From: an uncultured Nitrososphaerota archaeon
GTDB lineage: Archaea > Thermoproteota > Nitrososphaeria > Nitrososphaerales > Nitrosopumilaceae
Assembly (NCBI GenBank): GCA_963701075.1
Contig: OY969559.1
Location: forward strand, 576,001 to 640,000
Length of the DNA: 64,000 bases
Direction: 5' to 3'
Shown here piece by piece: positions 36,395-63,992 of this stretch (positions are counted from its first letter, which is position 1; every line of letters begins with the position of its first letter). The position numbers and the translations under genes were made by a program. Under the pieces are notes generated by a model. That model worked only from the letters and a program-made list of their open reading frames with translations. It searched no databases and had not been told where the DNA came from.

Positions 36395-37499
36395 ATGAGT
36401 ACAAAACGCGATTATTATGAAGTCTTGGGTATTCAAAAAAATGCTTCTCAAGATGAGATAAAATCTCAGTATAGGAAACTGGCACTTAAATTTCATCCAG
36501 ACAGAAACAAATCACCTGATGCATCTGAACATTTCAAAGAGATATCAGAAGCTTATGCAGTATTATCAGATTCTGAGAAGCGTAAGATCTATGACACTCA
36601 TGGTCATGCCGGGGTTGATGGTAAATACAGCACCGAAGATATATTCCAAGGATCTAAAGTCAATTTTGAGGATGTTTTCGGTTCTGGTTTTGAATCAATT
36701 TTTGAAAACGTCTTTGGTAGGGGGGGTGGTTTTAGATTTGGCGGTTTTGATTTTGGATTCGGTAGGGAAAGAGGAGCAGATCTAGTATATGATACAGAAA
36801 TAAAGTTCGAAGATGTCCTTAGGGGAAAACGAGAAGAGATCGAGCTTCCACGAGACATTGAATGTAGTGACTGCAAGGGATCAGGCGCTACTCCTGGAAC
36901 ATCCATGAGAACTTGCTCTGTTTGTAACGGTCATGGTCAGGTAAGAACATCTCGTAGTGGTGGATTTTCTACATTTGTCACCGTTCAACCATGTAATACT
37001 TGTAGGGGTAAAGGCAAAATAATAGAGAGACCTTGTTCTAGATGCAAAGGAACTGGCAAACAAAAAGGAAAACACCACTTCTCATTTGAAATTCCTCCGG
37101 GTATTGAAAGTGGCGAATATAGAATTAAAGGAGAAGGTGAGTCAATGTCAAACGGAACAAGTGGCGACCTTATTGTTAGAATCAAAGTAAAGCCTCATGA
37201 CCAGTTCAAGCGAGATGGTGCAGACATATTTTGTGATGCAAACATATCTGTCACTGATGCAATACTGGGCAAGAAATTGACTGTGCCAACCTTGGAAGGA
37301 ACTGAAAAAATCGAAGTTGAAGCAGGAAGTCAGCCAAATACGATAATAAAGATAAAAGGAAAAGGTCTACCCCATCAAGGATTTAGAGGCAGAGGAGATC
37401 AATATGTCAGACTTGTTATCAATATTCCAAAGAAAATAGATAAACATCAACGTGAATTACTCGAAGAGCTGCAAGATAAGCTTCAATCGAGAGGAATAA
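36395..37499 (+). CDS. dnaJ: DnaJ (as written it reads through into the next gene; probable indel at AAGCTT 37478-83)
   Basis: DYYEVLG, HPD, G/F region, four CxxCxGxG repeats; a 1-nt removal gives NREE* at TAA 37497-99. Confidence 0.92.
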
Positions 37500-37504
37500 G
37501 AATT

Positions 37505-38068
37505 TTGAAGATTGCACTAGATGTAGATGGGGTTCTTGCAGATGTTATACATGCTTGGATATCATACAATAATCAAGTCAGAACAACCATCTTGAAATCA
37601 GACATATCAGAATGGGACTTTTGGAAAAGATACAACATCAGTAAATTTGATTTCTATGAAGAGCTCTCCATGTGCTGGAAATCTTGGAAAACTATTCCTC
37701 CAACTGAAAGTGACATTTCCTCTGCATCAAAGGAACTTTCAAAGATGGGGACTGTGGATATAGTGACTGCAAGAGAGGACTCTACCCACAATGATGTAAA
37801 AAATTGGCTCAAAATGCATAATGTGACCTTCAAAAACTATGTAGGAGTGATAGAAGGAACAGAAAAGGCAAAACTTGATTATGATATCTTCATTGATGAC
37901 TCGCCCATAAATGCGAAAAGCATGCTTGCTGCAGGAAAATCAATAATACTCTACAACCAGCCATGGAATCTTGATTTTCCTGATTCTAGAGCAAAAAGGA
38001 TCTATGAATTAAAGAACGCAGTTTCTGCCATCCATGAAATTAGTCGTAATTGTTCTTCCTTATCATAA
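37505..38068 (+). CDS. HAD-superfamily 5'(3')-nucleotidase-like protein
   Basis: TTG start, [25 protein letters not shown]. Confidence 0.8.
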
Positions 38069-40574: not shown

Positions 40575-41859
40575 TTAGTCTGAAATTTCAAAGGCAATGT
40601 TTTCTTGCATGATCTTTTCCATTTCGTTGATGTCTTTAGTATTGCCCAATGCCCACATAGCTTTAACAAGAGCAGTCTCGGGAATCATATTTCCAAGTGG
40701 AACTACACCTAGGTTCATCAAGTCTCTACCACTATCATATACAGTCATACGAACAATTCCGTCTATACACTGTGATGTCATTCCAATGAATAATCCCTTT
40801 CTTTTTGCACGTACAATTGATTCATACATTATCTTACCCACATGGCCAAGACCAGTTCCTTCAAAAATAATTGCCTTGTAACCTGAATCAATTGCATAAT
40901 CTATCAACTTTGGATCAAGGCCTGGATAATATTTTACCAGCAAGACTTGATTATCAAAATTGATCTTAGGACTATATGTTTTCTTTAAAGGGTCAAACAA
41001 TGGATTCTTCTCAATAGAGTCTTTTTTTACAATGAAAACAGGAGATCCTCCTATTGTCTGAAATGCATTCCTCTTGCTAGTGTGATTCTTTCTTACTCTT
41101 GTCCCCCAATGGCATGCCACATCATCATCGCTTATTGAATTGTGCATCACAACAAAGATCCCATTAGTATCAGTTTCAACCAGAAATCTAGCTGCTGAAA
41201 TGAGATTTAGTGCAGCGTCTGAAGAAGGTCGGTCTGAAGATCTTTGTGAACCTACCAAAGCTACAGGTTTTGGGAACCCTGATAATGAAAATGAGAGTGC
41301 TGCTGCTGTATATTGCATAGTGTCTGTACCGTGAGCTGACTATGATGCCTTTGTATTCAGACCTAGAGTATGAATTCAGTTTTTCTGCAATTTTTATCCA
41401 ATGCTCTGGTAGGAGATTTTCAGAATATTCTGAGAACAAAACTTCTGTGTCAATGTTAGCTATCTCGGATAGTTCTGATACACTTGCATTGAGTTCTGCA
41501 GCTGTAAGAGCTGGATACACTCCTCCAGTCCTATAATCAATCTTGCTTGCAATGGTACCTCCAGTTGATATCAGTAAGATCTTGGGTAGTTTAGGATCTG
41601 TTTGCGGCTGTACCGTGTTCTCCTTCTTCACGGAAGGATGTAATTCTACTTCTATCTTGATAATTTTTTCAATTTGTAATCCTATATTGTAGCCATTTTT
41701 CAGTTTGAGAACAATGTGATCATCGTCACTGTGTTCGTATCTAGGCATCAAAATTCCTGAATAGGTCGAATCTGTCTGAACTTTCACTAGATCTCCTATC
41801 TCTATCTTATTTTTAGTTAGGAATTCAAGGCTCTTTCTACGGTATCCGCTATGTGACAT
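40575..41859 (-). CDS. gatD: Glu-tRNA(Gln) amidotransferase subunit D (split by +1 indel near 41338)
   Basis: TGGTIAS, restored GIIVAHGTDTM, GSQRSSDRPSSD. Confidence 0.94.
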
Positions 41860-41891: not shown

Positions 41892-44094
41892 TTACCTGTA
41901 GTAGGGCACTGCCACTTTTTCGCCTATCTTGAGTTCCTTCTGGGTTCTTACCTTTCTTACAGCTTCTTCAAAGTGTCTCATAGTTACTTTGGCGTCAGCT
42001 GCCTGTTTTTCTGCCTCTTTTTGGTCGGGATACTTGGCAAGAAACTCGTGTATGACAAGGGATACTGCTGTGTTGGCTATGGATGCTACATCTGCACCAC
42101 TCATTCCGTCGCTTGACTCTGCAATCTTGTCCAAATCTACATAGTCTGGATTCTTTGCGCCGTCTATCATTGGCTCTCTTACAACTGGAATGTCCTTTGC
42201 GTTGATTTCTAGTATCTTCTTTCTTCCTTCTTTGTCAGGTAGAGGCACCAAAATAATTTTGTCAAATCTGCCAGGTCTTAGCAGTGCCGTATCGATCATA
42301 TCTGCTCTGTTGGTAGCAGCCAATACGACTACGCCGCGCAGGCTCTCTATTCCATCAAGTTCGGTTAACAACTGGCTAACTACTCTTTCGGTTACAGTCT
42401 GTCTCTCCTCCAATTCCTCTGACAGGTGCTATCGAATCAATTTCATCAAAAAATATTACACAAGGCGATGCTTGTCTTGCTCTTCTGAATATCTCTCTTA
42501 TTCCACGTTCTGACTCTCCTACCCATTTTGATAATAGCTCTGGACCTCTTACTGATATGAAGTTGGCCTCACTTTCAGTAGCAACGGCCTTTGCAAGCAA
42601 AGTCTTTCCAGTTCCACTTGAGCCATGTAACAATATTCCTCTTGGCATTCTATGTCCTAGTTTTGAATACAACGTTGGGTATTTCATAGGCCATTCTACT
42701 GCTTCCTGTAATTCACGTTTGACAGTTTCTAGCCCTCCAACTTCATCCCAACTGACATCTGGATTTTCAATAAAGACTTCACGCATTCCAGAAGGTGTTA
42801 CCTCTTTGAGAGCATTCTGATAATCCTCGTCATTTACAATTAACTTGTCAAGAGTCTCAGGAGGAAGCTTCTCATCCTCTAAGTTGAGTTCAGGTAGCAA
42901 TCTTCGTAAGCATTTCATTGCTGCCTCTTTGCACAAGTATTCCAAGTCTGCGCCCACATACCCATGACTTATTGCGGCAATCTTATCCAAATTCACATCA
43001 TCACTAAGAGGCATGTTTCTTGTGTGAATCATGAGAATGTCTTTTCTGCCTTTCTTGTCTGGTACCTTTATCTCAATTTCTCTATCAAATCTGCCAGGTC
43101 TTCTAAGTGCAGGATCTATTGCATTAGGTCTGTTTGTGGCAGAAATTACTATAACTTTACCTCTTGCCTCAAGACCATCCATAAGCGATAACAATTGAGA
43201 TACAACTCTTCTTTCTACTTCTCCTGTTACTTCTTCTCTCTTTGGTGCTATCGAATCAATTTCATCAATGAATATTATTGACGGTGACTTTTCCTTGGCT
43301 TCTTTGAAAATTTCTCTAAGTCTAGCTTCGCTTTCACCATAGAACTTGCTCATGATCTCTGGACCTGAAATGCTGATAAAGTGAGCATTACTTTCATTTG
43401 CAACGGCCTTTGCAAGAAGTGTCTTTCCAGTTCCTGGGGGTCCATACAAAAGCACACCCTTTGGAGCTTCAATACCAAGTTTCTCAAATATCTCTGGATG
43501 TCTTAGTGGAAGCTCAATCATTTCACGAACTTTCTTAATTTCATCAGTTAGGCCACCAATATCTTCATAGGTCACCTGTGGAACGCCGCGCAAAGTTTCT
43601 CCTTTCTCTGCGATGTGAAATACAGTTTTTTGAGTTACAAGCACTGCATCTGCTGCTGGTGTGACACCTATTACTTGGAAAGTAAGTCTTCCACCAAAAT
43701 ATGGAACCATCACATTGTCTCCTTTTATTAGAGGAACACTTTCTAACGCATCTGCAAGATACCTCTCATCAATTGGAGGTATTGCTTCAAGTGGCGCAAC
43801 TACTACCTTTTCTGCAGCAACCGCCTTGATCTTGCGTACCGCAACAGTATCTCCTATTGCAATGCCTGCGTTATTTCTTACAAGTCCATCTACTCTGATT
43901 ATTCCTTTACCCTCATCAGATGGATAAAGGGGAAGACATTTGGCTACTGTTCTTCTCTTACCTTTTATCTCAATAACGTCTCCAGTGGATGCACCAAGTG
44001 AATCCATGGAATCATAATCAATACGAGCCACCCCTCTTCCCACATCACGCGTATATGCCTCAAGTACCTTAAGGGAGAGCATGTTCTGACTCAT
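41892..44094 (-). CDS. cdc48: CDC48/VAT AAA ATPase (split by +1 indel at 42398)
   Basis: Two AAA modules (GPPGTGKT; GSSGTGKT), RPGRFD twice; restored [11 protein letters not shown]. Confidence 0.95.
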
Positions 44095-45951: not shown

Positions 45952-46873
45952 TTAGGGTTGATTTAGTCCTAGATTCAATAGTGTATTGCATACGGCACAC
46001 ACGTCTCCAGTGCACTCTGCTCCACATTTTGAGCAATTTTTCCATATCTTGCCAGGTTCGTCTCTGAGTATGGAGGAAACTTTCAAAATTGAGTTGTACA
46101 TGTTGTTCTTGATTCCAATGTGATTCTTTTCCAATGAATTGAGGAAATTGCGTATCTCTGTTCTTATACCCTCATTCATGTGAGGACATTCTTCTGATTG
46201 AAATGGAATGTCATTTGTAAAAGCATAGAAGACAATCTCATTTTCATAAATTTCACAAAATGGCTTTATCTTTCTTGTTTTGTTATTTGATAGTTCTGGA
46301 TCCATCCAACCTATCTTACTTGTATCCCCTGAAAGAAGATTGATGATAAAAGTCTGAATAAAATCATCCATGTTATGACCCGTTGCAACTGTGTCTACTC
46401 CCAAGTCTTTTGCACCAAAATCAATAGCACGCCTTCTTAATATGCCACATATGGAACAAGATGAGATCTTTTTCTTTTCTCTTCAGCTCAAGCGATTGTT
46501 CCAAGGTCGTACCAAAAAGCTCCTTGTATGAATAAACATCATGCTCAACCTGAATCTTGTCGCAAAAATTTCTTACCATCTCTAATGCCTCGTCCCTATA
46601 TCCGGGAATTCCCTCGTCAATTGTAATCGCCCTGAGCGTAAAGTCATGATTCAATGAAATTTGCTTCAATGCATGCAAGAGAGACAGTGAATCTTTTCCG
46701 CCAGAAACAGCAACACCAACCACATCTCCGCCATTGATCATCTTGTATTTTGAGATAGTTTTTGCAGTCTTTCGCACAATTGACTTTGAAAAGCAATCTG
46801 AACAAAGATTTTCTCCAGAATATTTCCTAGAATAAACCGTTGTATTTTCACACCAATCGCATTTCATGACCAA
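45952..46873 (-). CDS. ncsA: TtuA/NcsA-family tRNA 2-thiolation enzyme (split by +1 indel near 46483)
   Basis: Terminal zinc fingers, SGGKDS PP-loop, restored SSCSICGILRRR, TGHNMDD, CPH. Confidence 0.85.
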
Positions 46874-50152: not shown

Positions 50153-50572
50153 ATGAAATCACTCACTGAATATCTAATATTTAATGTTCAATCACGAATA
50201 GGATTTGTGAATATCACATCTGATGTACGAAAAATAATTCAGAAGAGTGGAATCAAAGAGGGCATCTGCCTAGTTAATGCGATGCATATTACATCTAGTG
50301 TATTTATCAACGATGATGAAAACGGTCTTCATCAAGACTATGAGCGATGGCTTGAAGACTTGGCACCTCATGAACCAATATCAAAATACGAGCACAATAA
50401 AACAGGAGAAGATAATGCAGACGCACATCTTAAGAGGCAAATCATGGGAAGAGAAGTTGTAGTTGCGATAACAAAAGGTCAACTTGATTTTGGACCGTGG
50501 GAACAGATATTCTATGGTGAGTTTGATGGGCGAAGATCAAAACGTGTGCTTGTAAAGATTATTGGCGAATAA
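50153..50572 (+). CDS. yjbQ: YjbQ/UPF0047 family protein
   Basis: [33 protein letters not shown]. Confidence 0.92.
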
Positions 50573-50728
50573 TTAACTCAAAGAACCGCGTTTCTGACTT
50601 CCTTCTGTAACCGGTGTATTCTTAAAACTCTCTTCGTGGTTCTGAGGGCCATGACTACATTTGACACAGCCAACTTTGAAGCCATTAGAATCCTTCACAT
50701 ATGTCTCGCAACCGCAGAAACAAGTCAT
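50573..50728 (-). CDS. 51-aa Cys/His-rich micro-protein (not in ORF track)
   Basis: MTCFCGCETYVKDSNGFKVGCVKCSHGPQNHEESFKNTPVTEGSQKRGSLS*; TTATAT box about 25 nt upstream. Confidence 0.7.
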   Translation of the reverse strand: MTCFCGCETYVKDSNGFKVGCVKCSHGPQNHEESFKNTPVTEGSQKRGSLS

Positions 50729-50770
50729 ACTTCTTTGAAAACCTAATCCGTGATATAACTTATTTCAAAA

Positions 50771-51223
50771 CTAAATCTTACAACAGTTTCCACGTGGGAT
50801 GTCATGTCCATGGGGGCACTTTCTTGGATGTTTTAACATTGTACATAGGGCGTCCGTGAACTGTTCATTCATGTGATGCTCTATTCCGCAAACCATCTCT
50901 TCATCAATGTCAACCTTTAGAGCACTATCCATCAAGACTTCAAGCAGTCTGCTATTTCGCATCATATTGGAGCCAATTTGTTCTCCATTCTTAGTTAGGG
51001 AAACTCCGCCTTTGTTGTAGTTTACAAGTTTAGTATCATCCAGCTTTTTTAACATCTGCACCACGCTTGGCTGTCTTACGTTTAGCATCTTTGCTATCGT
51101 GCTTATCTTTACTGGATCTCCACCTTCCTTTATGTGCCATATTGCCTTTAAGTACATCTCAACATGTTCAGCCTCTGCAGTCCCAACAAACAGAACTTCT
51201 TGGTCTTTCATAATATTTTGCAT
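50771..51223 (-). CDS. DtxR/MntR-family metal-dependent repressor
   Basis: EMYLKAI, HTH, RLLE, IEH, CPHGHDIP. Confidence 0.9.
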   Translation of the reverse strand: MQNIMKDQEVLFVGTAEAEHVEMYLKAIWHIKEGGDPVKISTIAKMLNVRQPSVVQMLKKLDDTKLVNYNKGGVSLTKNGEQIGSNMMRNSRLLEVLMDSALKVDIDEEMVCGIEHHMNEQFTDALCTMLKHPRKCPHGHDIPRGNCCKI

Positions 51224-51231
51224 ATCGTACC

Positions 51232-52002
51232 TTACTTTACGTCTTTTGATTCTCTCAATAAATATTCAAAGTATTCGCGCGCAAAACCGGCAAGACCGGA
51301 ATGATCAGCCCATATGGCAACAGCTTCTTTTGAACTCGAGGTACCAAGTTCTTCTCCAAGTAACAAAACTACATATCTCTTATCTGAGATGATACCACCT
51401 CCAAAGAGTCCTTTTTTTAATTTAACCTTGGATACTCGTGATAGTGACTTTAATGTGTCAGTATCAACATCTTCAGATACTAGAATAGTGATATCTACGC
51501 CTCTATCGTGCAGTAACCTAAGCTTTGGTAGCGCTTCCTTTGCCACGCCCTCGGCGACTTTGGGTATGGCAATCAGTACCTCATTTCTGCAAGAGTCAAC
51601 CATTTCAAGAATCTTGGTTGCTATATTTACGACTCCAGAAATGATCCAAATGTCAGGCCTCTCACTTGTTCCACTTTGTTCGTAAAGTGGCGTAAGTTCC
51701 TTCAGTATCACACTCTCGTTATTTCTGAAATCTGCCTCAGTTTGCTGTCTTGATGTCTGTACAGCTGTAGCCGGAGATTTTGCAAAATACTGCGTGGGAC
51801 GTGAATCATCAGAGCCTATCCATCCCTTATCTTCTAGGGTGCCTAGAACCTCGTATATCTTGGAATAGGGTACTCCGGACTTTTGACTCAGGTCAGAGGC
51901 TGTTATTGGACCAGTCTTAAGAAGTGAAGCATACGTCTTTATCTCATAACTTGTAAGCCCCATCTTCTCAAGGGCCTTCCTAGTCTTGTCAGAGAGACTC
52001 AT
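51232..52002 (-). CDS. TrmB-family transcriptional regulator
   Basis: LEKMGLTSYE, SGVPYSKIYEVLGTLEDKGW. Confidence 0.9.
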   Translation of the reverse strand: MSLSDKTRKALEKMGLTSYEIKTYASLLKTGPITASDLSQKSGVPYSKIYEVLGTLEDKGWIGSDDSRPTQYFAKSPATAVQTSRQQTEADFRNNESVILKELTPLYEQSGTSERPDIWIISGVVNIATKILEMVDSCRNEVLIAIPKVAEGVAKEALPKLRLLHDRGVDITILVSEDVDTDTLKSLSRVSKVKLKKGLFGGGIISDKRYVVLLLGEELGTSSSKEAVAIWADHSGLAGFAREYFEYLLRESKDVK

Positions 52003-52146
52003 GTGATATCAATCGAAGGATCCATGATATATATACCTAGAATTAGGAGCTTGATCGCAGGCCAGCAGGCGCGCGTTCTACCTATTCATCTGGTGTCTTG
52101 TTGGAAATGGGTTAAATACTCTTTTCTAAGATATGCCAATAACGGT

Positions 52147-53811
52147 ATGGAACTAATTCAGATATCTAATCTTAAGACTCCTACTATAGGGAAAAAGTCT
52201 ACCATCAGGTTTACTCAAAGCATATGCCCAGACTGCAACATGATACTTGATGCCGAGGTCTTTGAAAGAGACGGCAAGGTATTCATGACAAAAACATGCC
52301 CCACGCATGGTGAATGTGAGGAGCTTTACTTTGGTTCATACGAAATGTATAGGAAGTTTAGCACCTATTGGATGGATGGCAAGGGCGCTCATGCCCCTAA
52401 CGTGATGATTGACAAATGTTCTTGTCCAAACAACTGTGGATTGTGTTCTAACCATCTCTCACACAGTGGACTAGCAAACATGATAGTAACTAACAGATGC
52501 GATTTGACTTGCTGGTATTGCTTCTTCTATGTAAAGAAAGGTCTTGAAGGCGCATACATGTATGAACCTACACAAGATCAGGTAAGAGCAATGATGAAGA
52601 CCCTAAAGGCAGAGAGGCCAATTCCTGGTAACTCTATGCAAATTACTGGCGGTGAACCAATGTTACGAGAAGACATTGCTGATGTTATCAAAATAATGAA
52701 AGAAGAAGGCGTAGACCATATTCAGATGAACACAAACGGAATCAGGTTTGCTCTAGATCCGGAAGCACTGCGAGAAGTCAGACTTGCAGGTGTAAATAAT
52801 CTGTATCTTAGCTTTGACGGTGTAACTCCAAGAACAAATCCAAAGAATCATTGGGAGATTCCATATGCATTAGAAAGTGCAAGAAAGACAGGAACCACTG
52901 TTGTCTTTGTACCTACCGTTATCAAATCAATTAATGATCATGAACTAGGCGGCATTATCAGATATGCACAAAAGAATCTTGATGTTGTGCACGCAGTTAA
53001 CTTCCAGCCAGTCTCGCTGACAGGAAGAATGGGGAAGAAAGAACGTGAGAAATACAGAATCACAATTCCAGACTGCATACAAAGAATTGAAGAGCAAACC
53101 GGTGCTGAAGTAACAGTAGATGACTGGTTCCCAGTTCCAAGCTGTATGCCACTGACAAACGTTATTGAGGCATTTTCAAGTAAACCAAAATACGAATTAT
53201 CAATTCATTTTGCATGTGGTGCAGGAACATACATCTTTGAAGATCAGGACACTAAAAAATTCGTCCCATTGACGAAATTTGCAGATATTCAAGGAATGTT
53301 GGAGCTCTTCGAAGACAAGGCAGAAGAGATTCGTTCTGGTAAAAACAAGTATTTCACAATGCTAGAGGTTGTAAGAAAACTCTCAAGCTTTGTAGATAGA
53401 AAGAAGCAACCAGCAGGCCTTGACTTGGCAAAGATGTTTGGTAACATCTTGATGAAGAGATCATTTGATTCAGTTGGTTCATGGCATGTAAAGGGACTCT
53501 TCTTAGGCATGATGCACTTCCAAGACAAGTATAACGAAGACTTGGAAAGACTGCAAAGATGCGATATTCACTATGTGACACCAGACCTTAGAATAATTCC
53601 ATTCTGTGCATTCAACGTAATTCCAGAATGGTATAGAGACAGAATCCAAAAGAAATATTCTACAACAGTAGAAGAATGGGAGCAAAGAGTTGGAGCAAAG
53701 CTAGAAGATGGTCTCTACAGGGGTATAATGAGAAGAGGATCAGGTGACGAACTTGCGGCAGGATGTGCAAAAAGCCAGATGTTCCACGAAGCATCTCAAG
53801 CTTTAATGTAA
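52147..53811 (+). CDS. tes: Radical SAM tetraether lipid (GDGT) synthase
   Basis: N-terminal SICPDC..KTCPTHG, CPNNCGLCSNH, CDLTCWYC, TGGEP, FQPVS, C-terminal CDIHY..IPFC. Confidence 0.82.
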   Translation: MELIQISNLKTPTIGKKSTIRFTQSICPDCNMILDAEVFERDGKVFMTKTCPTHGECEELYFGSYEMYRKFSTYWMDGKGAHAPNVMIDKCSCPNNCGLCSNHLSHSGLANMIVTNRCDLTCWYCFFYVKKGLEGAYMYEPTQDQVRAMMKTLKAERPIPGNSMQITGGEPMLREDIADVIKIMKEEGVDHIQMNTNGIRFALDPEALREVRLAGVNNLYLSFDGVTPRTNPKNHWEIPYALESARKTGTTVVFVPTVIKSINDHELGGIIRYAQKNLDVVHAVNFQPVSLTGRMGKKEREKYRITIPDCIQRIEEQTGAEVTVDDWFPVPSCMPLTNVIEAFSSKPKYELSIHFACGAGTYIFEDQDTKKFVPLTKFADIQGMLELFEDKAEEIRSGKNKYFTMLEVVRKLSSFVDRKKQPAGLDLAKMFGNILMKRSFDSVGSWHVKGLFLGMMHFQDKYNEDLERLQRCDIHYVTPDLRIIPFCAFNVIPEWYRDRIQKKYSTTVEEWEQRVGAKLEDGLYRGIMRRGSGDELAAGCAKSQMFHEASQALM

Positions 53812-53883
53812 TTTTCTCAAATCTTTTCATTTTACGTTTTAAATTCTAAAGATTAATTGTAAGGTATTGTATCACAATTCTAA

Positions 53884-54966
53884 TTGAAAATAGGAATCAT
53901 TCATGGATTTGTGGGTGGTGGGGGAGGGACGGAAACAACTCTACTTACTCTAATTGATGCCTTGGTAGAACACAAACATACTGTGAACCTATACACAGTT
54001 TCAAAACCCACAGTTCAATTGCCAAAAATAAAAGTACAATCTGTCTTTCCTTTTCGCTTGCCAGCTTTTGGTTTGTATCAGAGATATCTTGAATCAAAAC
54101 TAACCGAAAAGGCACAAAACGATGATCTGATCATACAGGTATCTGGAGGTCTAGCAATACCAAATAGAAAAGGCCAAAAAATTATAATTTACTGTCACCA
54201 TGATTTCAGAAACGAAACCGAAAAAGATGTTACAAAATACAAGGGCATATGGTCGGCATATTACAAGCCATACTACGCTCTAAGCCAAAAATTTGTTAGC
54301 CAGATAGGAGATGAAAATATCATACTTGTAGCAAATTCAAAATTCATACAAGATTCTCTTAAGAGTAGATTTGGGAAAGATTCTATTGTAATTTATCCGC
54401 CAGTTGATGTTGATATGTTTAAGAATGACATGGATAAAGAACAACGAGTACTCACCATATCGCGATATTCTCAGGAAAAGAACTTGGAATTTGCAATAGA
54501 TGCATTAAATGAGATAGATACGCCGTATACCATTATTGGCAATACCAAAACTAGAATAAATGAGCTATATTATGAGAGTCTTGCCACAAAAATCAAGAAC
54601 GGAAAATCAACTGGAAAAATACTGCTAATAAAAAACATAGAACGCAGCAAAGTGATAGCGAACCTGAAGAGATCGAAAGTGTATTTTCACGCATCACCTG
54701 AAACCTTTGGAATTTCTGTTGTGGAAAGCATAGCAGCTGGCTGTATTCCAATAGTGCCCAACAACTCTGCTCATGTGGAAACGGTTCCATTTGATGTCCT
54801 ACGATATGAACCCAATGACAAAAGAGATGCCCAAGAAAAAATCAAGAAGGCACTCTCAGGGGAGTATGATGGTTTACTGAATCAACTTAGAAATTCCATT
54901 GATGTTTATGGAAAGGACACTTTTAAGAAATCTATGACAAACTTCATTGAAAATATAGGAAACTAA
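53884..54966 (+). CDS. GT4 glycosyltransferase (Alg11-like)
   Basis: GGGGTE, VIYPPVD, SRYSQEKN, ETFGISVVE. Confidence 0.88.
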   Translation: MKIGIIHGFVGGGGGTETTLLTLIDALVEHKHTVNLYTVSKPTVQLPKIKVQSVFPFRLPAFGLYQRYLESKLTEKAQNDDLIIQVSGGLAIPNRKGQKIIIYCHHDFRNETEKDVTKYKGIWSAYYKPYYALSQKFVSQIGDENIILVANSKFIQDSLKSRFGKDSIVIYPPVDVDMFKNDMDKEQRVLTISRYSQEKNLEFAIDALNEIDTPYTIIGNTKTRINELYYESLATKIKNGKSTGKILLIKNIERSKVIANLKRSKVYFHASPETFGISVVESIAAGCIPIVPNNSAHVETVPFDVLRYEPNDKRDAQEKIKKALSGEYDGLLNQLRNSIDVYGKDTFKKSMTNFIENIGN

Positions 54967-54973
54967 ATGATTA

Positions 54974-55697
54974 CTATGGGTCTGACATGTGATATTTTTT
55001 CCATCGTTCTGTATCAAGACTCATATCCATTGTCAATCTCGGGCCTGTGTAATCATTGATTGTCATAGGTTGAATTTCCGGAGTGGTTAATTTAGCCAAT
55101 TCAAACATTGAAATCTTTTTGTCTCCGACAATGTGCACATAACCGCACAAATTTTCTTTCTGAAGATCCATTATTCCCTGGGATACATCTTGTGCAAAAA
55201 GATACGTTCCAAATCTGTCTACAAACGCACGTGGGTAAGGCCATTTTTTCTTTGCCACAAAATTGGTTCTTATAATCAAATATTCAGCAAGTCTGTTTAC
55301 TTGATATTCTCCTATCAATTTTGTCAAAGCATAGAAATTCTCAGGATATGGAATGGAGACTTTCTTTATACATTCCAGTGTGTCCATCGAAAACACAAGC
55401 AGTACTGATATAGATGAATTTAGTGTCTCTTTTTTTGTCAAGAACTGCATCCACCAAGTTTTTGGTGCCTTCTACGTTTGTATTCCATGCAAGTGGTCTG
55501 TTCTCTTCACATGGTCTTATGTGAATCATTGCAGCAGTATGTATTATGGTATCAAAGTCATGATTTTTTATATAGTTGATGACATTTTTCTTGTTAATTA
55601 TGTCAAGTTCCTGGTGTGACGGTGTTAACGCACTTGGAAAAATCTTCTTTAATTCGGTGCCAAGAGCTCCATTTCCACCTGTGATTAAAACACTCAA
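54974..55697 (-). CDS. RmlD-like NDP-4-keto-6-deoxysugar reductase (split by +1 indel at 55359)
   Basis: ITGGNGALG, HTAA, NVEGT, ISTACVFDG, restored YKESSIPYPENFYALTK. Confidence 0.85.
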
Positions 55698-55747
55698 CTT
55701 TCTTCTTATGGTTCAAGTAAACTATGTTGTAAACCTTTCCCGAAAAT

Positions 55748-56845
55748 CTAGTACTGTAGCCTGTCTATTTTTCCACTCAATATGTTGGCAACTCTCAAGG
55801 CAGTCTTACCGTCCCCCAGTGATCTATTCCATTCTAGATCATTTTCATGTGAGGTAATCACCTTGACTGCGGTTTCTACATTTTTTGGATCTAATCCTGC
55901 AAGTATGTTATACCCTTCTTCTATGTATTCAGGTCTCTCAGTGCTCTCGCGTATTGTAACGCAAGGTTTCTTAAAGTACAGCGCCTCTTCTGGAACTGTA
56001 CCGGAATCTGTAATGAGGCAAAATGCATTCTTCTCTAATTTGGAAAAATCAAAAAAACCGAGAGGTTTTATCAATTCAAGATTGTTCGGTATCTTTCTTT
56101 TCTTGATCTTACTTAGCGTCCTTGGGTGTATTGGATAGATAACTCTCTTCTTGAATTTCTTACCTATTGCTTGCAGAGAAGAAAAGATTTTTTCCAAGGA
56201 CTCTGGAGAATCAACATTTTCACTACGATGAGCTGTAACCAAAAAGTAACTATCTGGTTCCAAATTCATTTTTTCCATGATGTTGCTAGATTCTATCTTG
56301 GGTGAAAAGTAGTCTATGACATCAATTATTGGATTTCCTACGACGTATATTTTGCCTGGATGAATGTTTTCTCGAATCAGGTTTTCTCTGGAGTATGTTG
56401 TATATGGCAACAAAAGAGAAGAGAGATGGTCAATTATGACTCTGTTTTTTTCTTCAGGCATACGAAAGTCATAGCTACGCATACCAGCCTCAAGATGAGC
56501 AATCTTTATTCTATGATGAGCAGCAGGAATTGCTGCAAGACCGCTATTTGTGTCGCCTAAAATTAGCAAAAGATCAGGTTTTTCCTTCAATAGTATATCT
56601 TCTGATTTTGTTATGACATCTGAAACCTCTGGCCCATACTTGCCTGTTCTTATTTTCAGGTCATAGTCAGGTTTGCGAATCTCAAGTTCATCAAAAAAGA
56701 CCAAATTTAACTCGTGTGTGTAATTCTGGCTGGTGTTGATCATCACATGATCAAAATTTGCATCTAGTAAGGAGAAAATCCTACTCAATCTGATTATCTC
56801 GGGCCTTGTCCCAAAAATGGACATTATTTTCATATGATATGGCAT
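55748..56845 (-). CDS. Non-hydrolysing UDP-HexNAc 2-epimerase (WecB/WbjD-like)
   Basis: GTRPEIIR, GDTNS, HLEAGMRS, PEEKNR, TAHRSEN, TDSG, TERPE. Confidence 0.92.
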   Translation of the reverse strand: MPYHMKIMSIFGTRPEIIRLSRIFSLLDANFDHVMINTSQNYTHELNLVFFDELEIRKPDYDLKIRTGKYGPEVSDVITKSEDILLKEKPDLLLILGDTNSGLAAIPAAHHRIKIAHLEAGMRSYDFRMPEEKNRVIIDHLSSLLLPYTTYSRENLIRENIHPGKIYVVGNPIIDVIDYFSPKIESSNIMEKMNLEPDSYFLVTAHRSENVDSPESLEKIFSSLQAIGKKFKKRVIYPIHPRTLSKIKKRKIPNNLELIKPLGFFDFSKLEKNAFCLITDSGTVPEEALYFKKPCVTIRESTERPEYIEEGYNILAGLDPKNVETAVKVITSHENDLEWNRSLGDGKTALRVANILSGKIDRLQY

Positions 56846-56945
56846 GATGTTATTGCCAAATTTAAAAGGTTTTCAGATGACTGCAAAATTCATTTCAGGG
56901 TTTGCACTATTGAGCAATTAAGACTTATTAACTCAGCGTCAATCA

Positions 56946-57962
56946 TTGCATTTGAGTTTGGATTATTCATCGGTCATAAATGACCAAAATATTCTGATAA
57001 CAGGCGGTACAGGAAGCTTTGGCCATCAAATGATAAAAGAATTAATGAGATACAAACCACGAATTATCCGAATCTTTAGCAGAGATGAAGATAAACAACA
57101 TCTCATGAGACAGGAGTTTGAAAATGACCCAATAATTAAGAGAATGCAGTTTGCCATAGGAGATGTTAGAGACTATGATAGGCTTTACACTGTAACAAAA
57201 GATATTGATATAATATTTCATGCTGCGGCACTGAAACAAGTCCCAACTGTAGAATCTCATCCTTTTGAGGCAGTAAAAACAAACATCATCGGGGCATACA
57301 ACATAGTCAAGGCATCTGTTGCCAGAAAAGTATCTCAAGTGGTTGCAATAAGCACTGACAAGGCAGTAAAACCAGTCAATGCCATGGGAATGACAAAAGC
57401 ATTGCAAGAAAAAATAATTCTCTCTGATGATTTGTCAAAAGACGATACGATATTTTCCTGTGTTAGGTATGGCAATGTTCTTGGAAGTAGGGGAAGCGTT
57501 ATGCCGTTATGGGATTTGAAGATAGCAAAAAAGGAACCGCTTCCTATAACTCATCCTGATATGACTAGATTCATGTTAACGTTGAGCCAAGCCATAGATC
57601 TCGTCTTTTATTCGATAAAAAATGGAAAGGGGGGAGAAATATTTGTCAAGAAAGCGCCTGCTGCCAAAATAGTTGATCTTGCAAAAGCATATGCCCAATT
57701 GAAGACAAATCACAAAGATTATCCTATAAAATACATAGGTATACGGGCAGGAGAAAAAATTGATGAGATTCTAGTATCGGAAGAAGAGATGCGGCGAGTT
57801 GAAGAAAGAAAGGATCATTTTGTGATAAAACATGAAGAAGAATTTGATATGCAATCGTTGAAAAGATCTGTCAAATTAAAGGAATATGGTTCTGCCACTG
57901 TAAAACACCTGAACAAAAATGAGCTAATGGAACTTATGAAGAAACTTAAATGGATTACTTGA
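56946..57962 (+). CDS. UDP-GlcNAc 4,6-dehydratase/epimerase (WbjB/FnlA/CapE-like)
   Basis: TGGTGSFG, SRDEDKQ, HAAALKQVP, STDKAV..NAMGMTK, RYGNVLGSRGS. Confidence 0.9.
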   Translation: MHLSLDYSSVINDQNILITGGTGSFGHQMIKELMRYKPRIIRIFSRDEDKQHLMRQEFENDPIIKRMQFAIGDVRDYDRLYTVTKDIDIIFHAAALKQVPTVESHPFEAVKTNIIGAYNIVKASVARKVSQVVAISTDKAVKPVNAMGMTKALQEKIILSDDLSKDDTIFSCVRYGNVLGSRGSVMPLWDLKIAKKEPLPITHPDMTRFMLTLSQAIDLVFYSIKNGKGGEIFVKKAPAAKIVDLAKAYAQLKTNHKDYPIKYIGIRAGEKIDEILVSEEEMRRVEERKDHFVIKHEEEFDMQSLKRSVKLKEYGSATVKHLNKNELMELMKKLKWIT

Positions 57963-57996
57963 TTTTATATATTTTGTAAACACGTAATTTTTCATA

Positions 57997-58886
57997 TTAG
58001 GTTTTTTCTTTCATGTTCATGTATGACTTTAGTATTGAACCTGAAACCGATTTTGGTAATACTTTGAACATCACATCTCTTAACATGTGACGACTTCTTG
58101 AGGTCAATGGCTTGCTCTTTTGATATTCTTTTATGGCTTTTTCGTATTTTGTTAGCTCGTCTGGGGAAGCTTATCTAGTATGAATTTTCGTATCTTGTTG
58201 GTTTGAGCTAAAGATATGGTTACTTTTTCCTTTGTAAGTTGTTTTTGATGTACTCTGTATTTTGCTAATGTTTTTGGTATTAGATGTAGTCTACAGTTGT
58301 GTAAAACACAATATCTTAACCAAAACTCATAGTCTTCCTTGTAACCAATTGTTTCATTGAAAGCACCATATCTCTGAATTGCTGATCTGTGGATCAAACT
58401 AGTCGTTCCATTTCCAAAATAATGGTCAAGTAAAATTACACCTTGTTGAAAAGTTTCTAGTTGGTTGTAGTTTGGTTCTGTGAATTTTTCAACCACGTCT
58501 CCATCTGAATTTATGATGTCATAATTTGAATAAAATATGGTATTTTCCTTGTTTTCTACCTTTGAAGACTCTAAGATCATCTCTTCTAAAGCATTGGGAT
58601 ATAGTATATCATCGGCACTCAACCACTTGAACCATTCACCGGACATGTTCTTTATTCCTAAATTTAATGCAGATGCGGTACCACCATTTTTCTTTGTAAT
58701 TGTCATTATTTTGTCTGAATATCTTTTTAGGATTTCTGGTGACTGATCTGTAGATCCGTCATCTACAGCGATAATTTCTATCTTGCTATATGTTTGGTTT
58801 AGAGCTGAATCAATACATTCTTCTAAGAATCCTTGTGCATTATACACAGGAATAACTATTGAAATTTTATCATTCTGTTGATTCAA
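57997..58886 (-). CDS. GT2 glycosyltransferase (C-terminus displaced by probable -1 indel near 58165)
   Basis: SIVIPVYN, DDGSTD, ADD, EDYEF; alternative frame continues ELTKYEK...KEKT* to 57997. Confidence 0.88.
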
Positions 58887-58921
58887 TAAATATCTTTTAT
58901 CTAGGGGTTATTTTTGGTTAA

Positions 58922-59455
58922 TTGTTAATTGATATACAGGTGAGAGATAGAAAAGTCATGGTCAGAAGAATTGCATTTCGAGCTTGGTTCTATTTTAGGC
59001 AGGGTTGGGCTCAATATTTTGCATTTCTATTTGCAGCCGTGAACACTATGACTGTAACATACTATCTGGCAATCAAGGACGTTCCAGTTCTGAAAGATAT
59101 ATTTTTTGCATTTTGGGTATACCTTGTTTTCGTATCAGGAGTTGGTATTCCAATATTAGTCGGCGTCGGATATTTTCACTATAAAAAAAGTCGAGCGTAT
59201 CATGCAGAAGCAGACATAACCACAGAATCCAATCCATATTATTACAAACTTCCTCCAGGTTATTGGAGAGAAGTAATTATGCCAACATATCTAATTGTCA
59301 CAACTCTTCTCATGAAGATAACAAAAAACGAAAAATTAACGGAAGAGGAATTAAAAAAAATACAGGACATGCAAGAAAAAATGGATGCTCTGATAAAAGG
59401 AGGACTCATAGGTACAGAGAGTAGTAAATTTTTGTCAGATAAGAAAGGTCAATAG
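58922..59455 (+). CDS. Hypothetical membrane protein
   Basis: RAWFYFRQGW followed by two TM helices. Confidence 0.7.
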   Translation: MLIDIQVRDRKVMVRRIAFRAWFYFRQGWAQYFAFLFAAVNTMTVTYYLAIKDVPVLKDIFFAFWVYLVFVSGVGIPILVGVGYFHYKKSRAYHAEADITTESNPYYYKLPPGYWREVIMPTYLIVTTLLMKITKNEKLTEEELKKIQDMQEKMDALIKGGLIGTESSKFLSDKKGQ

Positions 59456-59464
59456 CAACTCCGT

Positions 59465-60589
59465 CTATGACGCAATATTTCTTCCAATAGAGCTAAAATC
59501 TCTATGAGTTAAATTCTCAATAACTGATAACATCTTAAAAATGAATTTGTATTTCATCTTTGCATGATGGGTCTTTTTCTTAACTGATTCCTCAAAGACT
59601 TCTTTCCATTGCTGAACCGTTTTTTTGTTGTCAAATATTTTTTTTACCCACGTATTTTGTGTCATCGCTAGCTGTTCTCTAAATTCTTTATCTAAAACTA
59701 TTTTGTCTATGTATACAGCTATTTCTTTAGGATCATTACTTTCCTTGTAAAAAGGATCATTTTCAGAAAAATTTTCTGGCGAATAACAAAATATTGGTTT
59801 ATTACACAAGGCAGCCTCTCTTTCAGTAGATCCACAACTCGTCATTGATATCTGTCCAAGTAGAGCATCCATTGATACCAAGTATGACGGCATGTCTTTA
59901 CGCTTGATTTTTGGAATTATTTCTATCTTGGATGGTTTTGCTTTTAAAATCTTAGCGTAATAATCGCCTGATCCCCAATCAGTTTGTAAAACTACAAAAT
60001 CAGACTTGGTCAGTTCGACAGATTTCCATAAAATATGATGTCCCTTATCGGGATCAATTCTCTGAGGGCTCAAAAAGGTAAATTTACCCGGTTTTAATTC
60101 TCTTTTCTCTACATCTGGATTAAACATCTTGTTGTCAACAAGTGGGAATATGATCTTTGCATCCTGTCTATATTTTTGCAAGATTTTAGCATCATGTGAT
60201 ATTGCAGCCACAACTAATGATGCATTATCTAGTGCATCCTTATACAATTCATCGAGAAGATTTTTTTTGAATGATGATAGTTCCTTTCTTATCCTGTTTT
60301 GTGGATCTATGTAAGCATCCACAAAATATATCACATAGTTTACCTCAGCCAGATAACAAATTGAAGACGCAATCCAGCCAAAGCATAAAAACACATCATA
60401 TTCTTTTGATAATTGTTTTATCTGTTGTATCTGTGAGTAAAGACCTTTGCCCTTTACAAAAAATTTTGGATTTTTTACTTGTGATATGACAGCATGTTCC
60501 AAAAAGTAAATTGCGCTAACTTCATCAGGATAATAATTCTGCAAGATGTATGCAAAACTAGATGAATCATGAACAACTAAAATTTTCAT
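59465..60589 (-). CDS. GT-B/GT4-like glycosyltransferase
   Basis: PLVD, QRIDPDKG, EREAALCNKPI; glycan-locus context. Confidence 0.7.
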   Translation of the reverse strand: MKILVVHDSSSFAYILQNYYPDEVSAIYFLEHAVISQVKNPKFFVKGKGLYSQIQQIKQLSKEYDVFLCFGWIASSICYLAEVNYVIYFVDAYIDPQNRIRKELSSFKKNLLDELYKDALDNASLVVAAISHDAKILQKYRQDAKIIFPLVDNKMFNPDVEKRELKPGKFTFLSPQRIDPDKGHHILWKSVELTKSDFVVLQTDWGSGDYYAKILKAKPSKIEIIPKIKRKDMPSYLVSMDALLGQISMTSCGSTEREAALCNKPIFCYSPENFSENDPFYKESNDPKEIAVYIDKIVLDKEFREQLAMTQNTWVKKIFDNKKTVQQWKEVFEESVKKKTHHAKMKYKFIFKMLSVIENLTHRDFSSIGRNIAS

Positions 60590-60689: not shown

Positions 60690-61901
60690 TTGAAACCAAA
60701 TACTGGCAAGACTTCTATTCGTAATTTTTTAACAATTAGATACAATCCACTAGAAAGAATTACTAATACACCTATTAAATGGAATAATTTTCGAAACAAT
60801 GCATCGGATTCTGATGGATATAAAACCGAAAAATTGCTAAAAAATGCGTTTTTGAAAATACCTCATGTAAAAAAAGGTAGGTTTGTTGTATCGCTTAGTA
60901 GTGGAATAGATTCCACATTGTGTCTTACATTACTACGTAAAACATTTCCTCAGGAAAAAATTATTGCAGTATGTGGTGTATTTGGAAAAGATCAAGATGA
61001 ATCTAAAAGAGCAAGAGAAATTGCCAACAAATTTGATGCAGACTTTAAGGTAATCTACATGGATTCAATCTTCACTAATATGCCAGAAATAATATCTATT
61101 TCGGGTAAACCAAGATGGAATACATATCAGCATGTAATAGCAAGAGAAGCAAAAAAACATGGCGATGTTCTCATTACGGGAGATGGTGCAGATGAGATTT
61201 TCGGAGGTTATACTTTTAGATACAATAAGTTCCTGAATTTGTTACAACCCAAAGACAACTGGAGAATTAAAACCATAAACTATCTGGAGTGTCACAATAG
61301 AGACTGGGTTCCAGATCAAGAGCATCTTTTTGGTTCTGCTATAAAGTTTAACTGGAATGAAATCTATGAGTATTTCAGACCTTATTTCTCAAATCGTTTA
61401 CATCCTCTTGAACAAGTAATGTTGGCAGATTATAATGGAAAATTATTGTATGATTTTTTACCTACATCCTTTTCTATTTTCAAACATTACGGAATTAATG
61501 GTTTTCAACCATTTCGTGACAAAGAAGTTGTTGATTTTGCGTTGCGTATTCCTGTTAGGCAAAAATATGATCCTGTTAACCAAAAGGGTAAGCTAGTTTT
61601 ACGCAAAATTGCTAAACGCTTGGGTGTGGAACATATTGATGAAAAAAAGGGTTTTTCGCCATCTTTGTGGTTTGATTGGAAGGATCATGGAAAGAAAATA
61701 TGCCAAACTTATCTTATGCAAAAAGATAGTCAAATCTTCAAGAGGAAACTAATCAATCACAATTGGATTTTGCGTTCATTCGAACGTGTTGAGAATGATG
61801 GAGATGTAAGATACTTGAATAGACTGATCTCAATATTTGCGTTAGAAATATGGTATAGAATATTTGTAACAAACGAGATGAAAAAAACTACACAGCTGTG
61901 A
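60690..61901 (+). CDS. Asparagine-synthetase-type ATP pyrophosphatase domain only (putative sugar amidation)
   Basis: SLSSGIDS, TGDGADEIFGGY, PF.D, KKGF; no N-terminal Ntn glutaminase domain. Confidence 0.8.
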   Translation: MKPNTGKTSIRNFLTIRYNPLERITNTPIKWNNFRNNASDSDGYKTEKLLKNAFLKIPHVKKGRFVVSLSSGIDSTLCLTLLRKTFPQEKIIAVCGVFGKDQDESKRAREIANKFDADFKVIYMDSIFTNMPEIISISGKPRWNTYQHVIAREAKKHGDVLITGDGADEIFGGYTFRYNKFLNLLQPKDNWRIKTINYLECHNRDWVPDQEHLFGSAIKFNWNEIYEYFRPYFSNRLHPLEQVMLADYNGKLLYDFLPTSFSIFKHYGINGFQPFRDKEVVDFALRIPVRQKYDPVNQKGKLVLRKIAKRLGVEHIDEKKGFSPSLWFDWKDHGKKICQTYLMQKDSQIFKRKLINHNWILRSFERVENDGDVRYLNRLISIFALEIWYRIFVTNEMKKTTQL

Positions 61902-61999
61902 GTTATTTTATGAAATAAAATCATATTGAACTTGTTCAATACAAGATTGTTAAAACAAAATCTGAACAATTCTTAGAGAACTTAAAATTATGATGTTAT

Positions 62000-62023
62000 G
62001 ATATCAAAGGATCCTTTGATATC
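62000..62023. repeat. Perfect 24-bp palindrome
   Basis: GATATCAAAGGATCCTTTGATATC equals its own reverse complement. Confidence 0.95.
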
Positions 62024-62087
62024 TGTAGTAAAAGATACAAAATTGTATGACTGTTAATTATCTGAACACTGGTAAACTGGTGATATA

Positions 62088-62136
62088 GTTTAGTGTTTTT
62101 TCTATTCGTAATACTACTGTAGATGACTCGAAGAAC
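62088..62136 (+). repeat. Left arm of perfect 49-bp inverted repeat
   Basis: GTTTAGTGTTTTTTCTATTCGTAATACTACTGTAGATGACTCGAAGAAC. Confidence 0.97.
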
Positions 62137-62741
62137 CTTCAGTGTCATTATCTGATTTTTTAAAATAATGGAATTTTACATCTCTTCCCTTAATCTTCAC
62201 TTCTCCTACTACCTTTGCAGGAATGCCAAATGCGATTGAATAGGCTGGAATATCCCTATTTACCAAACTATGTGCTCCAATAACAGAACATTTCCCTATT
62301 TTTACACCCATTGTTACTATTGAATACGGTCCAAGATAACAAAAATCTCCAATTGTGGTTTTATTTTTTTCATATGAAGCTTTTCCTCCCGTTAGAGCCC
62401 ATTTTACTGTCTGATGAGTATAAATTTGAACTCCACTACTTATACTGCAATAATCTCCAATCTCAAGTGTTCCTCCGCTTCCATCTAAGAGTGTATATGG
62501 TCCTATCCATGTTTTTTTACCTATTTTCACTTTTCCATATGTGTAATTATTGTGGTAGATGCTACTGCCTTTCTTCGCTTTCAAAAAATTTGCCTTTTCC
62601 CATCTGTCAAACAACAGACTCTTCAAATGGTAGAACCCTTTTCCAATCTTTGGCCATCTCTTTTCTTAATTGGTTATGAATTTGCAAAAGTTGAGCACGC
62701 AGGTTTACTTCGTTAATTGTCTTCTTATTTGATTTTGTCAA
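62114..62741 (-). CDS. Hexapeptide-repeat (LbH) acyltransferase (split by +1 indel at 62618)
   Basis: TTG 62741; restored LPFEELLFDRW; IG hexapeptide repeats, YTH, GIPAK; stop lies inside the left IR arm. Confidence 0.88.
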
Positions 62742-62824
62742 TTAGCCAAAACTACTTTCGTCCTAAACGATTTTAATATTCCTATTCAGCTCTTGTCTTA
62801 AGTATTATTATAACTGAATACTTA

Positions 62825-62873
62825 GTTCTTCGAGTCATCTACAGTAGTATTACGAATAGAAAAAACACTAAAC
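62825..62873 (-). repeat. Right arm of perfect 49-bp inverted repeat
   Basis: GTTCTTCGAGTCATCTACAGTAGTATTACGAATAGAAAAAACACTAAAC, exact reverse complement of 62088-62136. Confidence 0.97.
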
Positions 62874-62992
62874 CACTCATCAAAAAAACATTGAAGAAAT
62901 GAGAGAAATGCAAACTCTTCATGTATTTTATACTTTAATACATGCTTGTGATCGTATGATTATTTAAATTAGGACTACAATGTGAATATTTA

Positions 62993-63992
62993 ATGTATCA
63001 GCGAAATATCTCGTGGGTTGATCCCTATACAAATGAACCACTCATAGAAGAAAATGGTTTTCTAATTAGCACAACTGGAAAATATCCACTTTATGACGGA
63101 ATCCCAAATTTTGTTAGAAAATTAGATAATCCATTACAAGAACAAGTTCAACAATCATTTGGTAATAAATGGACTAAAAGTGACTTTGGTCAGGATGATC
63201 ATGATTTTGAAAAAATAAAAAACCCAATGCTTCAAATGATGGGTTTAAGTGAAAGTGATCTCTCTATATTTCAAAATAAAATTGTTCTAGATACAGGAAT
63301 AGGTAGTGGCTCATCGGCTAGGCTGTGGGCCCAAAAATCTAAAGAATTTCATGGAATAGATATCTCCAAAGCTGTTTATCGAGCCAAAAATGCATTAAAA
63401 TCATCTGGGAAAGAACCTGTTCTGTCACAGGCAGATCTTAATGCGCTTCCATACTTAGATGATAGTTTTGATGTGATAGTAAGCAATGGGGTTTTTCATC
63501 ATACTCCAGACACAAAAGTTGCTCTCAAAAATTGCATCAAGAAATTAAAAACAGGCGGATTGTGTCTATTCTATATTTACAAGAAAAAAGTCTCCGTTGC
63601 GAGAATTTGCTGACGATTACATTAGAGATAGAATAAGCGATCTCTCGTATGATTCTGCAATGAAGGCAATGGAACCAATTACGGATTTTGCTAAATCATT
63701 ACATGAACAATCGATAAAAATACAAATTCCCAATGACCTAGAAATACTTGGTATCAAAAAAGGAGAATATGATCTTCAGCGTTTCATCTATCAATTTTTC
63801 TTTAAATGCTTCTGGAATGAATCATGGGGTTTTGAATATTCTAACCTGACAAATTATGATTGGTATCATCCAAAATTTGCCTGGAGACACACTAAGACAG
63901 AAATCCAAGACTGGTGTAAGGAATTTAATTTACAGACAGAGTATATTAAAGAAACTGAATCAGGGTACACATGTTTAGTAAAAAAGACCTAG
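62993..63992 (+). CDS. Class I SAM methyltransferase with Trm112-like N-terminal segment (split by +1 indel at 63591)
   Basis: YPLYDGIPNF, VLDTGIGSG, GIDIS, LPYLDDSFD, GVFHHTPD; restored KKKAPLREF. Confidence 0.88.

Follow-up and report, generated by a model that had tools for sequence, protein, structure and literature searches.

A perfect 49-nt inverted repeat that encloses a sugar acetyltransferase gene in the last part of the 64-kb window (i.e., the whole stretch of 64,000 nucleotides that was analysed) is most likely a scar left by recent rearrangement within a hypervariable glycosylation island. We hold, with a little better than even confidence, that the repeat is real DNA left by a recent local rearrangement and not a dedicated switch; a programmed invertible switch, as put forward in an earlier sequence-only reading of this DNA, is possible but unsupported. 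The sole close relative compared was a contig of a Thaumarchaeota MAG, referred to as L001, which was found by an acetyltransferase protein scan of genome contigs.

Structure of the inverted repeat

The repeat and the sequences on either side of it comprised the following features:

60690–61901, plus strand: AsnB-like protein with an asparagine-synthase C-terminal (ATP-pyrophosphatase) domain, 83% identical to its L001 counterpart
61902–62087, no strand: left flank, from the AsnB-like stop to the left arm, 186 nt, 25% G+C
62088–62136, no strand: left arm of the 49-nt perfect inverted repeat
62114–62741, minus strand: hexapeptide-repeat (LbH) sugar O/N-acetyltransferase of about 208 codons, assigned from Pfam Hexapep and homologues
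62742–62824, minus strand: acetyltransferase upstream region, 83 nt, inside the unit, homologous to an L001 spacer
62825–62873, no strand: right arm, exact reverse complement of the left arm, non-coding here
62874–62992, plus strand: right flank, methyltransferase promoter region, homologous to the L001 AsnB-methyltransferase spacer
62993–63992, plus strand: SAM-dependent methyltransferase, 81–85% identical to the intact 333-aa L001 gene

The two arms were 100% complementary over 49 nt and 688 nt apart, exactly as first described, and the whole repeat-bounded unit measured 786 nt with the arms included. At up to three mismatches, the 49-mer occurred in the window only as the two arms, and two matches to it were present in none of 100 dinucleotide shuffles of the window. 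Among inverted repeats of 28 nt or more in the window, the arm pair was also the only perfect one, the other five pairs listed being 74–77% complementary, and its edges were sharp on all four sides (a at 62087 versus c at 62874, and c at 62137 versus a at 62824). Within the left arm, positions 62114–62136 (23 nt, minus strand) comprised the last seven codons and stop of the acetyltransferase gene, encoding (G)SSSHLQ and a stop codon at 62114–62116, in keeping with the earlier claim that the gene ends inside this arm, and positions 62088–62113 comprised the 26 nt 3′ of the stop. A run of six T residues was present in this arm on the plus strand. The right arm was located between the promoter region of the acetyltransferase gene and that of the methyltransferase gene.

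Two further sequence features of the arm were discarded. An internal imperfect dyad had been noted in each arm, but single-stranded DNA of the two strands folded with only -0.5 and -0.8 kcal/mol and 190/200 and 185/200 shuffles, respectively, folded at least as well, so that the dyad was not above chance and was ruled out as a recombinase core. A 13-nt word (TTCTATTCGTAAT) was common to the arm and the 5′ end of the AsnB-like gene, at 60713; by a rough reckoning, this sharing was taken to be at about chance level.

Perfect terminal inverted repeats around a discrete unit of 786 nt, found at another position than in L001, are what would be expected of a non-autonomous mobile element with 49-nt terminal inverted repeats and the acetyltransferase gene as passenger. 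Several results spoke against such an element and made it extremely unlikely. Thus, no direct repeat or target-site duplication flanked the arms (GATATA preceded the left arm and CACTCA followed the right arm), neither a further copy of the arm nor a shared 14-mer turned up in the window or across 28 fetched loci (430 kb), and one of the two supposed terminal repeats was the 3′ end of the gene itself. Moreover, no integrase, resolvase or transposase family was found in a Pfam scan of 73 ORFs of the window (12 + 52 + 9 proteins). The original observation that target-site duplication, transposase and recombinase were all lacking was therefore upheld for the arm flanks and these 73 ORFs.

The enclosed acetyltransferase gene

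The minus-strand ORF between the arms matched Pfam Hexapep with 49.3 bits (cut-off 27; 3e-13) and, judged from its sequence, is a member of the hexapeptide-repeat (LbH) acyltransferase superfamily, which bears out the initial description of one acyltransferase gene enclosed together with its upstream region. A protein database search returned 1816 acetyltransferase homologues at E≤1e-10, nearly all of the 120 matches listed (of 1816) being 190–207 aa in length. The best of these, P0001 (204 aa), was 92% identical and another, P0002, 86% identical; both came from metagenomes. When both reading frames of the assembled gene were taken together, identity to 13 aligned homologues was 64–92% over the whole length.

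The best NCBIfam similarities were to NeuD/PglB/VioB, WcaF and WbbJ-type sugar acetyltransferases (E 6e-14 to 7e-13). The enclosed protein has in common with these enzymes left-handed beta-helix repeats and a polysaccharide-gene setting, i.e., the proximity of glycosyltransferases and sugar-nucleotide enzymes. Unlike them, it fell far below every curated cut-off (e.g., 52 versus 161 bits for NeuD_NnaD), which indicates that it belongs to no named equivalog.

In the assembly, an additional base at about 62618 (AGACT on the plus strand) broke the gene into two frames. The C-terminal part was a 170-aa ORF at 62626–62114, while the N-terminal 41 codons, at 62741–62619 with a TTG start, lay in another frame and aligned with the N-termini of homologues. 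The sequence-only reading was correct on the identity of the gene, and the split in the assembled sequence is a correction to it. The C-terminal tail (DNDTEGSSSHLQ) was similar to that of P0002 (DNDTDSSSGHR), and tails vary freely across the acetyltransferase family. We take the left arm to be the probable native 3′ end of the gene and the right arm to be the copy.

Frameshifts and sequence quality

Single-base indels split at least nine genes in the window, namely those for adenine deaminase, ThiF, DnaK, GatD, Cdc48, a TtuA-like protein, an RmlD-like protein, the acetyltransferase and the methyltransferase. In six of the nine, the frame was restored by dropping the middle base of AGTCT or AGACT to give AGCT. 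The positions concerned, including two breaks next to or at AGCT, were as follows:

30856–30860: AGTCT/AGACT frameshift site, ThiF
35158–35162: AGTCT/AGACT frameshift site, DnaK
42396–42400: AGTCT/AGACT frameshift site, Cdc48
55357–55361: AGTCT/AGACT frameshift site, RmlD-like
62616–62620: AGTCT/AGACT frameshift site, acetyltransferase
63589–63593: AGTCT/AGACT frameshift site, methyltransferase (AGTCT, with one extra base at about 63591)
1747–1754: break next to or at AGCT, adenine deaminase
41334–41337: break next to or at AGCT, GatD

The association of frameshifts with AGCT-type sites was argued from a site-by-site reading. An enrichment test based on deletions, in which dropping the middle base of AGTCT or AGACT rejoined frames at 5 of 134 sites compared with 16 of 670 random deletions, was set aside as a non-discriminating control, since any deletion near a frameshift restores the frame. 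Methylation of AGCT (m4C) was reported for several Thaumarchaeota in the available text of two studies (10.1101/2021.05.08.442635; PMC11033074). From the location of the frameshifts at AGCT-type sites and this published modification, we infer that the single-base frameshifts stem from long reads in which a modified motif was systematically miscalled and are not marks of pseudogenes. The frameshift in the acetyltransferase gene is therefore probably a sequencing error and, if the errors are of long-read origin, both this gene and the methyltransferase gene are probably intact in the cell.

Two other ORFs were noted in the course of this survey. The TtuA-like PP-loop gene (45952–46873) was split into two 150-aa ORFs by a frame change upstream of 46460. 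A 557-aa ORF at 36395–38068 contained a complete DnaJ (J domain, zinc finger and C-terminal domain to residue 345) followed by an NT5C-type 5′-nucleotidase (residues 373–534), and could be either a true fusion or the result of a stop codon lost to sequence error.

An assembly with indels in at least nine genes, those for DnaK, Cdc48 and GatD included, is error-prone, and the repeat might on this account be an artefact of assembly or consensus, i.e., the real chromosome might lack one of the arms or carry the 688-nt segment the other way round. This was nevertheless considered very unlikely. The errors that were seen were point indels at AGCT-type sites and not structural; both junctions of the segment were consistent with one clean inversion, and the path from arm through gene to arm was unique sequence. 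A graph assembler would, by this reasoning, have needed chimeric reads to invent a second arm. In addition, single reads would have covered the 786-nt unit from end to end if the data were indeed long reads, which makes structural misassembly less likely.

The glycosylation island and gene order in other loci

The last 10 kb of the window formed a polysaccharide/glycosylation island that contained genes for GT1 and GT2 glycosyltransferases, UDP-GlcNAc 2-epimerase, Polysacc_synt_2, RmlD-like and AsnB-like proteins and the SAM methyltransferase, with a G+C content of 32–33% compared with approximately 38% in the rest of the window. The location of the acetyltransferase gene among glycosyltransferases and sugar-nucleotide enzymes agreed with the glycan-island setting recognized at the outset. 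The thaumarchaeal affiliation proposed at the same time was supported by a core flank in common with L001, window positions 50373–53815 corresponding to L001 1–3425 with 87–98% amino acid identity (tblastx segments).

Beyond this flank, the first 6.7 kb of the island (window 53884–60589), with genes for GT1, RmlD-like, 2-epimerase, Polysacc_synt_2, GT2, a membrane protein and a GT1-like protein, had no counterpart in L001 3425–7437, which held a flippase-like membrane protein and another glycosyltransferase-like gene instead. Since both flanks of this stretch were shared with L001, it appears to be a replaced cassette block of the kind typical of flexible islands. The AsnB-like gene adjoined the methyltransferase gene in both the window and L001 (7429–8664; 83% identity), and its product matched Pfam positions 20–354 of asparagine synthase without a glutaminase domain. 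On the basis of this conserved neighbourhood, the AsnB-like protein may amidate a sugar or glycan carboxylate.

L001 also carried homologues of all three genes at the repeat, i.e., AsnB-like (83% identical), methyltransferase (81–85%) and acetyltransferase (77% at the amino acid level), in that order and on one strand. No repeat bracketed its acetyltransferase gene: neither an inverted repeat of at least 16 nt nor an exact inverted 12-mer was found around the gene, and the 49-mer had no match in L001 at up to three mismatches. In a distant Chloroflexota contig (L002), a methyltransferase homologue (39% identical) was followed after 62 nt by an acetyltransferase homologue (54–59%) on the same strand, while in a third locus with a homologue of more than 50% identity (L003), no methyltransferase homologue was within reach. 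Both loci that held the two genes (2/2) thus had methyltransferase followed by acetyltransferase in the same direction, which makes the divergent arrangement of the window most simply a derived one, and from these sequences the window arrangement looks derived relative to L001 and L002. In these two loci, the acetyltransferase gene had the opposite relative orientation and no repeat, yet it also occupied another position, 3′ of the methyltransferase gene.

Upstream and flanking sequences

The 83-nt region upstream of the acetyltransferase gene aligned with the gene-proximal 3′ part of the L001 methyltransferase-acetyltransferase spacer (20 of 2000 shuffles scored higher). A TATA-like element (TTAAAATC) was present at 62769–62776, 28–35 nt before the TTG start, and the same word was present 24–31 nt before the acetyltransferase start in L001. 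Conservation of this element inside the unit indicates that the acetyltransferase gene carries its own putative promoter within the unit, as the sequence-only reading had cautioned.

The right flank aligned with the whole L001 AsnB-methyltransferase spacer (z 7.4, 0/2000 shuffles), most of the signal coming from the gene-proximal 59 nt (z 6.6) and the distal 60 nt being marginal (z 1.7). For the left flank, no homologue could be detected in either L001 spacer, in the sequence 3′ of the acetyltransferase gene of L001, elsewhere in the window or among the 28 loci, its alignments to L001 regions giving z values of -1.2 to 1.0 and blastn only short words at chance level. Together, the alignments of flanks and upstream region to the L001 spacers indicate that 61902–62873 is an insertion relative to L001, located between the AsnB-like stop and the methyltransferase promoter, in which the acetyltransferase gene lies backwards.

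Within the left flank, 65 nt from the left arm, was a perfect 24-nt palindrome (GATATCAAAGGATCCTTTGATATC, 62000–62023), the longest perfect palindrome in the window, where just one other reached 16 nt. The hairpin formed by its DNA had a z value of -3.3, with 2 of 200 shuffles folding as well. Judged from its sequence, it might act as terminator or operator, or it may be the footprint of a template switch. No Rfam family was found in 61700–63100 at E≤1.

A candidate origin of the right arm as the original copy, derived from the 3′ end of the L001 methyltransferase gene and the adjoining spacer (with which it shares GTTTAGT), was dropped when the alignment proved to be at chance level, 295 of 2000 shuffles and 22% of 4082 background windows scoring as well.

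Origin of the repeat

The locus can be written as flank, B, inverted segment, B′, flank. Here, B stands for a unique sequence found at one segment end (the last 23 coding nt of the gene and 26 nt 3′ of it), and B′, its second copy, does not code for protein. A historic inversion with breakpoint duplication, which the sequence-only reading had offered as a fallback, fits the L001 and L002 data best, although one inversion alone is not sufficient. A single inversion does not produce the order in the window from that in L001, so that at least one relocation, and with it more than one step, or else a complex template switch, is required.

The following course of events is proposed, the mechanism of duplication and the order of steps being inferred. 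The ancestral order would have been that kept in the two other genomes, with the acetyltransferase gene 3′ of the methyltransferase gene on the same strand. A unit made up of the acetyltransferase gene, its promoter and the 26 nt that follow the gene would then have moved to the opposite strand, between the AsnB-like gene and the methyltransferase promoter, and an inverted second copy of the 49-nt 3′ end of the gene would have come to lie at the far edge of the unit. The duplication could have arisen either through inversion in which the break at one end was staggered and then filled in or through a replication template switch that copied 49 nt of the opposite strand at the junction. In either case, the relocation or inversion of the cassette would have taken place inside the hypervariable glycosylation island.

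A precedent for the first of these routes appears in the available text of Ranz et al. 2007 (PMC1885836), where inversions with inverted duplications at their borders were described, including duplications that derive from a single breakpoint and have lengths down to 46 bp, and staggered breaks were proposed as the mechanism. The present locus resembles those described there in having an inverted segment flanked by an inverted duplication of non-repetitive end sequence. It differs in that the published cases, as that text presents them, were large Drosophila chromosomal inversions repaired by end joining, whereas here the unit is a single archaeal gene of 0.7 kb and a relocation is required on top of the inversion. 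Application of the staggered-break model, with its basis in Drosophila and end joining, makes the corresponding archaeal repair activities an assumption.

With regard to the second route, template-switch (quasipalindrome) mutation copies neighbouring sequence perfectly and in inverted form in a single event, the arms in the cases ascribed to it usually being tens of bases apart. A perfect inverted copy is likewise present here, along with the 24-nt palindrome 65 nt from the left arm, and this palindrome would fit a region prone to inversion or template-switch events, although the fit is only suggestive. Template-switch mutation by itself does not account for the difference in acetyltransferase position from L001.

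Three further points qualify the interpretation of the repeat as a rearrangement scar. The ancestral order is based on two loci, one from a close and one from a distant relative; the 186-nt left flank matched no source in the sequences searched; and ongoing recombination between the arms would likewise keep them perfectly identical.

Possible inversion of the unit

Since the arms are identical, host homologous recombination could flip the unit occasionally, and rare homologous flipping of this kind is possible. Recurrent flipping, in which host homologous recombination at the 49-nt arms would maintain both orientations in the population without a dedicated recombinase, was regarded as unlikely. 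Exchange or gene conversion would then keep the arms identical, and 49 of 49 positions were indeed identical even though one arm is coding and the other is not. The gene would also stay intact in either orientation, and the tail shared with the 86% identical P0002 protein gives a hint that the sequence of the arm is not wholly new. Weakly against a consensus drawn from a balanced mixture of orientations was the cleanness of the acetyltransferase sequence, which showed 92% identity to P0001 and just one indel, of the AGCT type.

What such flipping could achieve is limited by the content of the unit. The whole gene and its putative promoter lie inside, with the 3′ end of the gene in both arms, so that a flip cannot switch the acetyltransferase gene off and no on/off effect on it is predicted. 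The sole predicted effect of a flip is on the direction of acetyltransferase transcription, which would converge on the AsnB-like gene in one orientation and run toward the methyltransferase gene in the other.

Bacterial invertons (e.g., the fim switch, Hin/hix and the polysaccharide promoters of Bacteroides) have short, often imperfect sites and a dedicated recombinase, and they move a promoter or a partial coding region relative to fixed genes. The present unit shares with them an inverted-repeat-bounded segment in a surface-glycan locus, the repeats here being 49 nt long, 100% complementary and 688 nt apart, and its inversion would be conservative. In contrast with bacterial invertons, its arms are 49 perfect bases, no recombinase was seen in the window, and gene and promoter move jointly; neither a promoter nor a part of the coding sequence is uncoupled from a fixed gene, as the TATA-like element travels with the gene that it precedes. 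Read-through may nevertheless affect the neighbours of the unit.

The original suggestion of a trans-acting recombinase switch has to be seen against this comparison. In the form considered here, a site-specific recombinase encoded elsewhere in the genome would flip the cassette and so phase-vary transcription across glycan-modification genes. The setting of the unit in a surface-glycan locus, reminiscent of bacterial phase variation, is in its favour, as are reports of putative invertons in other archaea, which in the available text of one survey numbered 12 in 42 genomes and belonged to just Euryarchaeota and Crenarchaeota (10.1101/2023.03.11.532203). The suggestion was not borne out by the present results and was judged highly unlikely: recombinase-type families were absent from the 73 ORFs, the arm lacked a core-type dyad above chance, the repeat was absent from the one close relative (1/1), recombination sites therefore not being conserved in L001, and classic promoter-flip logic does not apply to a unit that contains both promoter and complete gene. 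Recombinase sites of invertons are usually 10–35 nt in length, and an arm of 49 perfect bases exceeds that usual range.

A broader proposal is that the unit is a working inverton, flipped either by a recombinase or by efficient recombination between the arms, with changes in read-through or in antisense transcription across the genes for the AsnB-like protein and the methyltransferase, and hence cell-to-cell variation in surface glycan decoration, as consequences. This was considered quite unlikely; if true, it would provide surface-glycan variation, for instance in antiviral defence.

Biological significance

As it stands, the unit is a clean but ordinary structural variant. Were flipping to be demonstrated in living populations, the unit would become, as far as literature searches show, the first invertible element on record for ammonia-oxidising archaea; a search of the literature for invertible elements in Nitrosopumilus found nothing. 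In the genomes of ammonia-oxidising archaea, no part is as variable as the glycosylation islands, which are thought to shape virus-host interactions. Interpreted as a scar, the repeat marks a base-exact, datable rearrangement and shows one route by which gene order in such islands would be reshuffled, namely the movement and inversion of a cassette with duplication of its 3′ end.
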